From assembly GCF_003790525.1 (NCBI RefSeq), contig NZ_CP033635.1: a DNA stretch of 64,000 nucleotides. One strand, 5' to 3'. This DNA comes from Escherichia coli (GTDB lineage: Bacteria; Pseudomonadota; Gammaproteobacteria; Enterobacterales; Enterobacteriaceae). Positions within the stretch are counted from its first letter, which is position 1; each line of letters begins with the position of its first letter. The notes below the pieces were generated by a model, which was not told where the DNA came from, did no database searches, and worked only from the letters and a program-made list of their open reading frames with translations. Below, piece after piece: positions 51,043-52,685 of the stretch. Made by a program: the position numbers and the translations under genes.

Positions 51043-52685
51043 GATGAGAGATCTCCGTTGATTTGGATTGACTTCACATCATTAATCACCGCGGTAAAAC
51101 TTTACGGCATCCGGCATTGAGCAATGCTACAACTCTCTGATTAAGAGTGATTGAAACGGAACAAACCATCCCGGAACGAAAAGATAATTCTACACGCAGG
51201 GTAAAAACACTCAAGAACAGCGAATGGATTTAAAAACGACATGGACAACGAGAAAAGTCAGAAGGGAAAAGGATCCACAGAACATTCGAACAAAACACCA
51301 GAAACGCAACCAGAACGCTTCCTGGTAATGCAAATCAACAACAACCCCAAAACCTACAGCTTAATCACACAACTCAATCACGGATGTGAATGACACGTTT
51401 AAAACCTGTTTACAGATAAACCCCGCCACAAGAACAAAAATCACCAACATCAGAATCGATTTTCTCATCCTGAAAAAGTTACGTTTCACTACGCACCATA
51501 AAAACGATTAACCATCGATAACGTAAACCTTATCTGAATCAAAAACACCAAAACCGTTCATCACACTTTCGCAATGCAAGAAGAAACCTCATGACAAAAA
51601 GAATGACCTTACACGGAAAAGAAAACGTCAGGAATCGTTAATGCCTCAATCTGATTGTTATCAAAACATCCAGAAAGTCGTTTAACAGAATCGTCGTAAG
51701 CACATCGAAAAAAACGTCAGATTACTTCAGGAAAGTTCGGGTTGATTTAGCGTAAAGATACTTTTCTCATGCTAACGTCGAAACTCGAAATCTTAGGAAA
51801 GGTTAAACGTAACATCAGTAAAATCGAATAGCAGATTGATTGCTGAAGCAGAAAGGTTTTACAGCAGCATTAAACTGATTTAGTTAACGTAAAGATTTAC
51901 TAAACTGGATGTGTATAGCAATGCTTAACGAAAACAATTGTAGAAGTGTTTATGAAAATACGTGTATAACACTTACTGAAATGCTTAGTAAAAATACTTA
52001 GTAAAATATGTGTATATAGTATCATACCGACATTCTCAACATCTTCAGACTTCCATACATACTGGGTGTTAATTTTTCACTTTTACAGCCAGCATGGAGT
52101 TTTCTGTCCTAAAAACAGAGCAGATTTACTCTGGAATTATTTTTCTGCCCTCGTATTTCAGGCCCCAGAAAAGACAATCCGAAGCAAACCGTTTGTCAAC
52201 CTCCATATCATCTTTTACCCCCGGAAAGTGATCGCGTTTTACAACCAGAATGACAGCCATACTGATTATGTCGTCTCCCGGCCCCCTTCACATATAACAT
52301 GCATGTCTGTCATTGCTTACTGCTCTACATGACAGGATTTCACATACAGGATGCGCATTCAGTGTTTTTATCGCCACTATAACAGACAGATTACTGTCGC
52401 TTTTACTCTTCAGATTGTTAATCTGACCACAAGAACAGTCGAACAGTACAACGACACCCCCAAGGAGAATATGAGCCGTAGTTGATAGCATGTTTTATTT
52501 TATTATGAATAGGTCAAGAAATAGTTCTTGATATGTCTGGAATAGTTTTGTGAATAGTTCTAGAATATCCCCATAATCAGCTTTGAAGTGCTTGCAGGGT
52601 GATATTTTTATTGATCCCCTTGCATATACAACTGACATGTGATGGTGAAAATCACCAGAAAAGAAAACGATTGAGGCGTAATCAG

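Follow-up and report, generated by a model that had tools for sequence, protein, structure and literature searches.

A conserved, mosaic non-coding tract with a variable repeat array in P4/CP4-type islands of Escherichia coli

Here we describe a stretch of DNA without called genes, at positions 51043–52685 of a 64,000-nucleotide (nt) window of Escherichia coli contig NZ_CP033635.1; the window is the whole stretch analysed, and positions and strands refer to it unless stated otherwise. This tract, which separates a minus-strand gene of the YagK/YfjJ ('inovirus Gp2') family from a plus-strand gene encoding 262 amino acids (aa), is non-coding, conserved and mosaic, and it contains a short repeat array whose copy number varies. 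We tentatively favour, at somewhat under an even chance, a reading in which the tract is cis-acting, modular intergenic DNA of the conserved core of P4/CP4-type E. coli islands. The feature is real and widespread, its function is unproven, and it belongs among the ordinary intergenic control or spacer regions.

Distribution of the tract

By megablast, 1876 of the 5426 complete genomes of E. coli contain homologous DNA (~2950 copies in all), at up to eight places per genome and with a coverage of at least 80 % in 605 of the 1876; the complete absence of conservation that a preliminary description of this DNA had allowed for is therefore not what we see. Among plasmids, only four E. coli records matched, carrying the same island DNA, and phage records gave zero matches, observations on which a mimic of an origin of transfer or of a plasmid leading region was rejected. 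In each of the 13 distinct chromosomal contexts of E. coli that were examined, the tract begins right at the start codon of a Gp2-family gene, and most islands have a cargo gene on the minus strand that separates the tract from a GTPase operon. Homologues are missing from the K-12 islands CP4-6, CP4-44 and CP4-57, and experimental data sets obtained in K-12 are therefore of no help here.

The E. coli record of TUM1886 (NZ_CP128970) is 100 % identical to the window over 1558 nt (51043–52600), and its annotation by the Prokaryotic Genome Annotation Pipeline (PGAP) has zero genes between the coding sequence (CDS) of the Gp2-family protein (50311–51042, minus strand) and the next CDS (52686–53474, plus strand). 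Across the 49 kb of annotation examined, no other intergenic gap is as large as this one (1.64 kb). A contig labelled as a 'Bacillota bacterium' metagenome-assembled genome (JAEYLX010000008.1, locus L016) carries an E. coli-type Gp2 gene (86 % at the amino-acid level) together with the tract (77 % at the nucleotide level); the label probably reflects a mistake in binning, or contamination, in the public record.

Mosaic anatomy

Alignments by blastn and megablast showed recurrent homology breakpoints at query positions ~153, 486, 1105, 1311 and 1489–1505. The region is laid out as follows, with a strand given only where one applies.

51043–51195: segment A, proximal non-coding DNA that includes the 5′ region of the Gp2 gene with its ribosome-binding site; the most conserved part
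51196–51527: segment B, where A enrichment and G depletion are greatest (A 43 %, C 25 %, G 15 %, T 17 %)
51528–52157: segment C, the retained module, present with the array in 17 of 17 copies inspected
51528–51895: segment C1, A-rich non-coding DNA with dispersed AACGTAA, found in all copies that were aligned or examined with blastn
51896–52037: repeat array of 142 nt, with GTGTATA motifs bracketing tandem AT-rich 12–13-mers
52038–52157: segment C3, right end of the retained module, with a weak hairpin (52116–52133) and T-runs on both strands
52158–52492: segment D, non-coding DNA of ordinary composition that depends on cargo type; its 88- and 67-aa open reading frames (ORFs) are unsupported as genes
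52493–52685, plus strand: segment E, promoter/operator-like region of the downstream gene, from repeat and promoter scans

In segment A, 98 % of the alignment columns are identical among 12 copies at 51043–51092 and 88 % at 51093–51142; islands of the L026/L020 type retain this segment as well (query 1–153, ~82 %), and a GGAG lies 9 nt ahead of the Gp2-family ATG on the minus strand. Segment B is replaced in loci L026, L027 and L020 by ~1.2 kb with a 176-aa gene (WP_000778605.1), DNA that has neither nucleotide nor protein similarity to segment B, and locus L013 has lost ~150 nt within the segment (~51297–51448). Since it is replaced in some islands, segment B is probably filler without a sequence-specific role. 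The 176-aa gene itself is located at 2616–3146 (plus strand) of L026 and 4170–4700 (plus strand) of L027; by eye, the C-terminal half of its product has the look of a Myb/SANT-type helix-turn-helix (W..E.D..L...GRT..C..R), and PADLOC returned no match for it.

The retained module was matched in L020 and L026 by blastn (query 486–1115), with a sub-module at query 704–1119 in megablast. Two blocks, 51443–51542 and 51793–52042, are conserved at 89–94 % within a background of 71–83 %. The heptamer AACGTAA occurs at 51479, 51520, 51806 and 51886, four times against 0.26 expected from shuffles of local composition, and is mostly conserved in the copies; it was picked post hoc from a k-mer list, and its significance is uncertain. 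A related CGTAAA is found at 51101 and 51751. In segment C3, the 20-mer TTTACTCTGGAATTATTTTT (52125–52144) shows 0–2 changes across the copies read, and homology stops at ~52147, corresponding to a query breakpoint at 1104–1107 in many genomes. Beyond this junction, segment D aligns with an identity of 39–45 % to islands with other cargo versus 89–100 % to islands with the same cargo. Segment E holds four direct repeats of the type (G/A)AATAG(G/T)T(C/T) (52507–52564), an inverted repeat TCAAGAA-ATAG-TTCTTGA that contains a CTTGATA core, and a sigma-70-like site (52548–52577), a layout that looks like an autoregulated promoter of the 262-aa gene.

This anatomy bears on the suggestion in the preliminary description of a large regulatory leader. 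A regulatory or cis-acting role is plausible; given that at least five modules, each with its own history, make up the region, we prefer a role at the DNA level to a single leader of ~1.5 kb.

The repeat array

Within the array, GTGTATA occurs three times (51911–51917, 51962–51968 and 52010–52016), and GCTTAGTAAAA (51983–51993) and ACTTAGTAAAA (51996–52006) share the form (G/A)CTTAGTAAAA. Both pairs of direct repeats noticed earlier (51983/51996 and 51962/52010) are thus present, the GTGTATA at 51911 being a further copy. The tandem AT-rich 12–13-mers are ACTTACTGAAAT, GCTTAGTAAAAAT and ACTTAGTAAAAT, with an AT content of 75–85 %, and the composite unit reads AAAATAC-GTGTAT ... ACTTAGTAA; Tandem Repeats Finder reported an array of period 12–13 at 51955–52008 (score 49–50). 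Both repeat motifs are near-exclusive to this spot within the window, and GC content is 30 % over 51801–52040. Read on the minus strand, the GTGTATA motifs become CTATACACA, TTATACACG and ATATACACA (51910, 51961 and 52009), which share one direction and have one mismatch each to the DnaA-box consensus.

Across the 17 copies, the array measures 130–247 nt and contains one to six exact GTGTAT, with at least three in 14 of the 17; whole units have been gained or lost, while the flanking columns are ~90 % conserved. Judged from these alignments, the array appears to behave like iterons, gaining and losing units between stable flanks, and it has the tandem or direct short repeats expected of an iteron origin (three GTGTATA, 12–13-mer units, variable copy number).

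A preserved strand asymmetry

The plus strand had been described as A-rich and G-poor over its first kilobase, as it indeed is (51043–52043: A 39.7 %, G 16.7 %), and the bias is stronger at 51100–51700 (A 41.3 %, C 24.0 %, G 15.6 %, T 19.1 %). When composition was compared in 600-nt windows across the 64 kb, the fraction of A reached its maximum here (0.42; mean 0.252, standard deviation (s.d.) 0.042; ~+4 s.d.), as did A+C (0.653; mean 0.507, s.d. 0.031; ~+4.7 s.d.). The sliding-window comparison thus places the extremes of A and A+C here, but does not bear out the purine richness claimed in the preliminary description: A+G is 0.56–0.57 (~+1.9 s.d.), the window maximum of 0.583 lies elsewhere, and the real bias is one of A (and A+C) against G and T. 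The A-rich portion spans 51196–52040, while 52158–52600 is ordinary in composition and has a separate evolutionary history. AT skew rises to +0.43 and GC skew falls to −0.34 in the tract, where GC content is 30–42 % versus ~50 % in the flanks.

All 12 aligned copies keep A at 0.39–0.42 and G at 0.14–0.17 despite a divergence of 20–25 %. At third codon positions, a lean in this direction is seen for both skews in the adjacent Gp2 gene alone, and for GC skew in one other gene as well; since most island genes lack the skew at these positions, the asymmetry is confined locally, and an island-wide mutational strand bias is ruled out. None of the readings considered here accounts well for this asymmetry. 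Curved DNA through A-tract phasing was rejected, as there is no periodicity of 10–11 bp and the sole period, 12.25 nt, comes from the repeat array. Counts of IHF, Fis, H-NS, Chi, GATC and CTTGATA motifs are at or below chance; with possible H-NS silencing of AT-rich island DNA in mind, the high-affinity H-NS motif was looked for and is represented by a single match with two mismatches at 51515, no more than chance.

The tract might instead be functionless spacer that hitch-hikes between conserved modules, is maintained by cargo recombination and owes its composition to ancestry. In several copies it is 78–80 % identical to the window versus 93–95 % at third codon positions of the adjacent gene, so that its divergence exceeds that of the neighbouring synonymous sites; this faster divergence implies either a weak primary-sequence constraint over most of the tract or a separate recombinational history. 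Many indels and the ~150-nt deletion are tolerated, segment B is replaceable, the K-12 CP4 islands do without the tract, and structure, coding signal and any significant known motif were absent in our tests, all of which would be expected of a spacer. However, such DNA would hardly be expected to keep its violation of A=T and G=C in 12 of 12 copies, a skew that most island genes do not share and that is thus not an island-wide mutational bias, nor would it retain two blocks of elevated conservation and an array in 17 of 17 copies. We consider it unlikely that the tract is spacer alone.

Coding potential

ORFs of at least 60 codons are absent only from 51043–52065. The statement that none exists over about 1.5 kb therefore holds for this part and fails beyond it, where the ORF listing contains three:

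52066–52332, plus strand: ORF of 88 aa
52288–52491, minus strand: ORF of 67 aa
52495–52743, minus strand: ORF of 82 aa

The 88-aa ORF is disrupted by a frameshift or stop in homologous copies (L007, L008 and L011), and a check of conservation was negative for the 67-aa ORF as well. A decayed protein-coding gene, one of the options raised in the preliminary description, might be suspected from the sporadic PGAP calls of 57–82-aa 'hypothetical proteins' at ~51147–51396 in some genomes, and from the true 176-aa gene held in this slot by another island type. The tract nevertheless lacks 3-base periodicity (0.2888 vs 0.2879), its copies differ by frame-breaking indels (lengths among 12 copies include 1, 2, 4, 5, 8, 11, 13, 21 and 22 nt), and UTI89-type copies have lost the start codon of the short ORF. 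Searches of PHROG and NCBIfam with the ORF fragments of the tract gave nothing above noise, the 176-aa protein showed no similarity to the tract in tblastn (E > 1), and no intact frame was found in the homologues. A decayed gene is hence highly improbable.

RNA, promoter and terminator signals

No known RNA family was recognised in the tract: an Rfam search of 49000–55000 at E ≤ 1 gave only PhotoRC-I (19.9 bits against a gathering threshold of 45), inside the Gp2 CDS, and the gathering-level scan of the whole window gave nothing in the tract. Folding energies over 51100–51700 are no better than those of dinucleotide shuffles (z of +1.29 for the plus strand, predicted at −86.8 kcal/mol for 601 nt, and +0.47 for the minus strand), and for the non-coding RNA locus suggested in the preliminary description, a structured form finds no backing in these results. 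A conserved sigma-70-like promoter of reasonable quality was not found on either strand, the best scoring 8/12 and occurring in 8–10 of 12 copies, and a single minus-strand match (51214–51187) is mutated in other copies. The terminator-like hairpin at 52116–52133 has an AT-rich stem of 5–7 bp, with T-runs on both strands to 52145, and is not maintained among the 17 copies; we downgraded this terminator (52116–52145) because it is weak and poorly conserved. With promoters of 8/12 at best and an AT-rich, variable hairpin, the tract does not have the features of a small RNA (sRNA) bounded by an intrinsic terminator. Two specific candidates were rejected: a CsrA-type GGA sponge (GGA 11 vs 8.8 ± 2.6, with the best GGA site missing in UTI89-type copies), and the enterohaemorrhagic E. 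coli sRNA Esr41 (OI-43, ~70 nt, GC-rich terminator), which does not fit the locus.

A gene for a non-coding RNA that acts in trans, such as an A-rich sponge that binds Hfq or proteins of the ProQ/FinO type, would fit the A-rich plus strand with its many A-rich triplets, the ProQ/FinO-family gene or pseudogene carried by the same islands, and the fact that the tract is never annotated as coding. Without an Rfam family, a structure signal, a convincing promoter–terminator pair or GGA enrichment, and with low primary-sequence constraint, we regard such a gene as very unlikely.

Transcription could also matter in another way, if the tract were copied into an unstructured, untranslated transcript that controls transcription through Rho or antitermination. 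Rightward, this would be ~1 kb of A-rich RNA with C in excess of G, a Rho-dependent or terminator buffer read through only with an AlpA-type antiterminator; leftward, starting from ~52020, it would be a long, U/G-rich, C-poor and Rho-resistant leader of the Gp2–AlpA operon. The weakly structured plus-strand RNA is consistent with this proposal, as are the C>G stretch at 51244–51658 (which ranks third in length among such plus-strand stretches of the window), the terminator-like hairpins and T-runs on both strands at the module end, and an AlpA-family gene in the leftward operon (49077–49313). In Pseudomonas aeruginosa, AlpA is a documented antiterminator that lets RNA polymerase pass terminators ahead of the first gene (PMC7969949). 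An intergenic region of Providencia, described below, is likewise A-rich and G-poor on the sense strand of its divergent GTPase operon. Against such a transcript stand the poor promoters, with the minus-strand match mutated elsewhere, and the weak, unmaintained hairpin. As for Rho utilization (rut) features, the predicted structure is weak, but C is average at 24 % and YC dimers show no enrichment (0.108 vs 0.125), the bias consisting of A up and G and T down. Furthermore, a plus-strand gene separates the array from the Gp2 gene in L026-type islands, an arrangement that speaks against one leftward leader, and in most islands the minus-strand cargo gene separates the tract from the GTPase operon. 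Either form of the transcript thus seems an improbable explanation.

The adjacent Gp2-family protein and its distant relatives

The constant left neighbour of the tract is the following gene.

50311–51042, minus strand: YagK/YfjJ ('inovirus Gp2') family gene, 243 aa, HUH-type Rep-like endonuclease

Its product has an HUH fold with the HUH metal-binding motif and the catalytic Tyr (YxxK) intact, the features that define the superfamily; by fold and motifs, this backbone protein is an HUH Rep-class nuclease. The E. coli proteins of 243 aa contain an insertion of ~45 aa (residues 152–195) that is absent from relatives of 189–207 aa, with a predicted local distance difference test (pLDDT) score below 50 across most of residues 154–186. 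The copy in the window also has a second Tyr (YLVKYETK), giving a YxxKYxxK pattern like that of phiX174 gpA, which is not conserved in the family. Our literature search on the role of the CP4/P4-type backbone, including the YagK/YfjJ 'Gp2' proteins, found no functional work.

Rep-class HUH endonucleases usually act near their own gene, and their nick site is normally located in a hairpin. Segment 51528–52157 with its array could be pictured as a putative origin for the adjacent Rep-like protein. This reading is attractive, but without support from any conserved nick hairpin, and CTTGATA, looked for as part of a rolling-circle double-strand origin, is absent from 51043–52157; we consider the origin reading quite unlikely.

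Seven distant Gp2-family genes (36–61 % protein identity), sampled from Providencia, Brenneria and metagenomic or draft contigs, are preceded by at least 449 nt of DNA free of called genes. In Providencia and Brenneria, the divergent partner belongs to the same backbone, with GTPase or hypothetical genes followed by DUF932 and then antirestriction or RadC, and by eye several of the distant upstream regions hold local direct or inverted repeats. The Providencia region (L018, 5552–6000, 449 nt; 39 % protein identity) has an E. coli-like bias on the GTPase-sense strand (A 43 %, C 18 %, T 32 %, G 7 %) and three AACACATA repeats. Brenneria and the remaining distant loci lack the A-rich, G-poor bias.

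Island setting

The window covers an E. coli pathogenicity island with aerobactin iuc/iut, sit, a YadA-like adhesin and many insertion sequence (IS) elements, up to the core gene ynjB, where it ends. Much of the E. coli cargo for virulence and defence resides on CP4/P4-type islands. To the right, the tract is followed by the well-known CP4-type backbone of a YeeP/YfjP-like GTPase, DUF905, DUF932, antirestriction, RadC and DUF987 genes, together with a YeeU-family (CbeA-type) antitoxin and the CbtA toxin. The leftward operon comprises the YagK/YfjJ-family gene, a gene for a 200-aa hypothetical protein, an AlpA-like helix-turn-helix gene and a second Gp2-family gene. The AlpA-family gene (49077–49313) is annotated as a helix-turn-helix regulator, and Phage_AlpA was detected in the syntenic genes of distant loci. 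The second, shorter Gp2-family gene (169 aa; 48328–48837, minus strand) adjoins IS1414, beyond which lies a frameshifted ProQ/FinO-family gene (~47850–48310); an intact copy occupies the same relative position in L013 (1–191). The right neighbour is as follows.

52686–53474, plus strand: variable cargo gene, 262 aa (PGAP CDS WP_000816188.1)

The C-terminus of its product has a weak likeness to RepA/CopG-type ribbon-helix-helix regulators (NCBIfam NF010256, E 0.027, below the cutoff), and PADLOC gave zero matches for the neighbouring cargo genes. The gene overlaps by 4 nt with a minus-strand gene of 317 aa (the pair spans 52686–54424); neither has a known defence, PHROG or NCBIfam family, and they could be an uncharacterised cargo or defence pair. 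The contents of this slot, which is bounded by the Gp2-family gene on one side and the YeeP/YfjP GTPase gene on the other, differ by island type, and in K-12 CP4-57 (L003, 6352–12356) it is occupied by the anti-phage systems AbpAB and RnlAB. Elsewhere in the window, Rfam matches at gathering level were a group II intron domain (17590–17676, plus strand, 64 bits) and the Hfq-binding sRNA STnc490 (22584–22705, minus strand, 133.7 bits).

Discussion

Returning to the reading of the tract as cis-acting intergenic DNA of the island core, its parts would divide the work as follows. The ~150 nt beside the HUH Rep-like gene hold its translation start region and probably its promoter, and the 330-nt A-rich block of segment B would probably be exchangeable filler. 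The array in segment C is a candidate site for a sequence-specific protein, which could be the HUH Rep-like protein, an AlpA-type regulator or host DnaA, and might serve the island core as an operator or a candidate origin-like site; we infer such protein binding and activity. The region ends at a recombination junction, beyond which lies cargo-specific DNA, including the promoter/operator-like part of the next gene. In favour of this reading are the wide conservation and constant position of the tract, its non-coding status and modular history, the iteron-like array, the Rep-class HUH neighbour, whose kind usually acts near its own gene, and the gene-free DNA upstream of the distant Gp2-family genes.

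Several observations weigh against this reading or parts of it. The upstream regions of K-12 yfjJ and yagK are short and have no tract, which implies that the Gp2 protein family in general does not need one. A k-mer motif common to the distant Gp2 loci was not found beyond shuffles (k = 8–10, one mismatch), so the resemblance of ATGTGT-type repeats seen by eye in Providencia, Brenneria and L024 is only anecdotal. One-mismatch DnaA-box matches number 6 vs 3.1 ± 1.8 in shuffles, which is not significant, and the array sits 870–1000 nt from the Rep-like start codon. The single-stranded DNA (ssDNA) fold of 51780–52150 does not stand out from shuffles (z −0.29), a conserved hairpin backed by compensatory changes was not found, and the 17 copies, compared by eye, include several in which an 8-bp inverted repeat, AAACACTT/AAGTGTTT, has decayed. 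The divergence relative to third codon positions, given above, indicates that primary-sequence constraint is mostly weak, and 'filler' does not explain the persistent A-rich, G-poor composition of all copies.

Roughly one in three complete E. coli genomes carries the tract, an unannotated non-coding module. Its study has had two by-products: the YagK/YfjJ backbone protein can be assigned to the HUH class, and an array of 142 nt has been delimited as an experimental target, a handle on whether these islands replicate or undergo ssDNA processing after excision. If the origin reading were true, a common class of E. coli islands would keep a private module for replication or ssDNA processing that works after AlpA-triggered excision, and the A-rich/T-rich strand asymmetry would mark the processed strand. 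If the array is only an operator or spacer, the finding is one of ordinary intergenic DNA.

Comparison with known systems

Antiterminator-controlled leaders, such as lambda pR'-tR' and the AlpA-dependent alpBCDE of P. aeruginosa (PMC7969949), are comparable in that the tract has an AlpA-family gene nearby and that untranslated DNA with terminator-like elements lies ahead of downstream genes. They differ in that we identified no promoter with an AlpA-binding element, that the hairpin of the tract is weak and unconserved, and that intervening cargo genes often have the opposite orientation.

In P4-/CP4-like cargo hotspots (K-12 CP4-57: yfjJ, abpBA, rnlAB, yfjP), the Gp2-to-GTPase interval is variable as it is here, where the tract stops at breakpoints. 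However, CP4-57 has no homologue of the tract, and the cargo genes of the window match no known defence family.

Origins used by HUH Rep proteins, as in geminiviruses and other circular Rep-encoding ssDNA (CRESS-DNA) viruses, Ff phage and the pMV158 double-strand origin, likewise lie between divergent units, upstream of an HUH gene and with repeated motifs. Unlike these, the tract has no conserved stem-loop for a nick site, contains CTTGATA only at ~52526, in cargo-specific DNA, and is far longer, with an exchangeable filler segment.

Further comparators are found among the pri-rep-ori modules of Staphylococcus aureus pathogenicity islands (SaPI) and phage-inducible chromosomal islands (PICI), iteron plasmids, and oriC with its DnaA boxes and AT-rich 13-mers. 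Satellites of the SaPI/PICI kind are compact, whereas the host of the tract is a large, IS-ridden pathogenicity island. In contrast to iteron-type origins, the DnaA-box matches are imperfect and not significant as a count, and the array does not adjoin the gene but is set back 0.9 kb upstream. The layout is alike in these respects: short, DnaA-box-like direct repeats flank AT-rich 12–13-mers, their copy number is variable, and the array belongs to a non-coding part of a mobile element, with a Rep-like gene and a gene for an AlpA regulator as neighbours.

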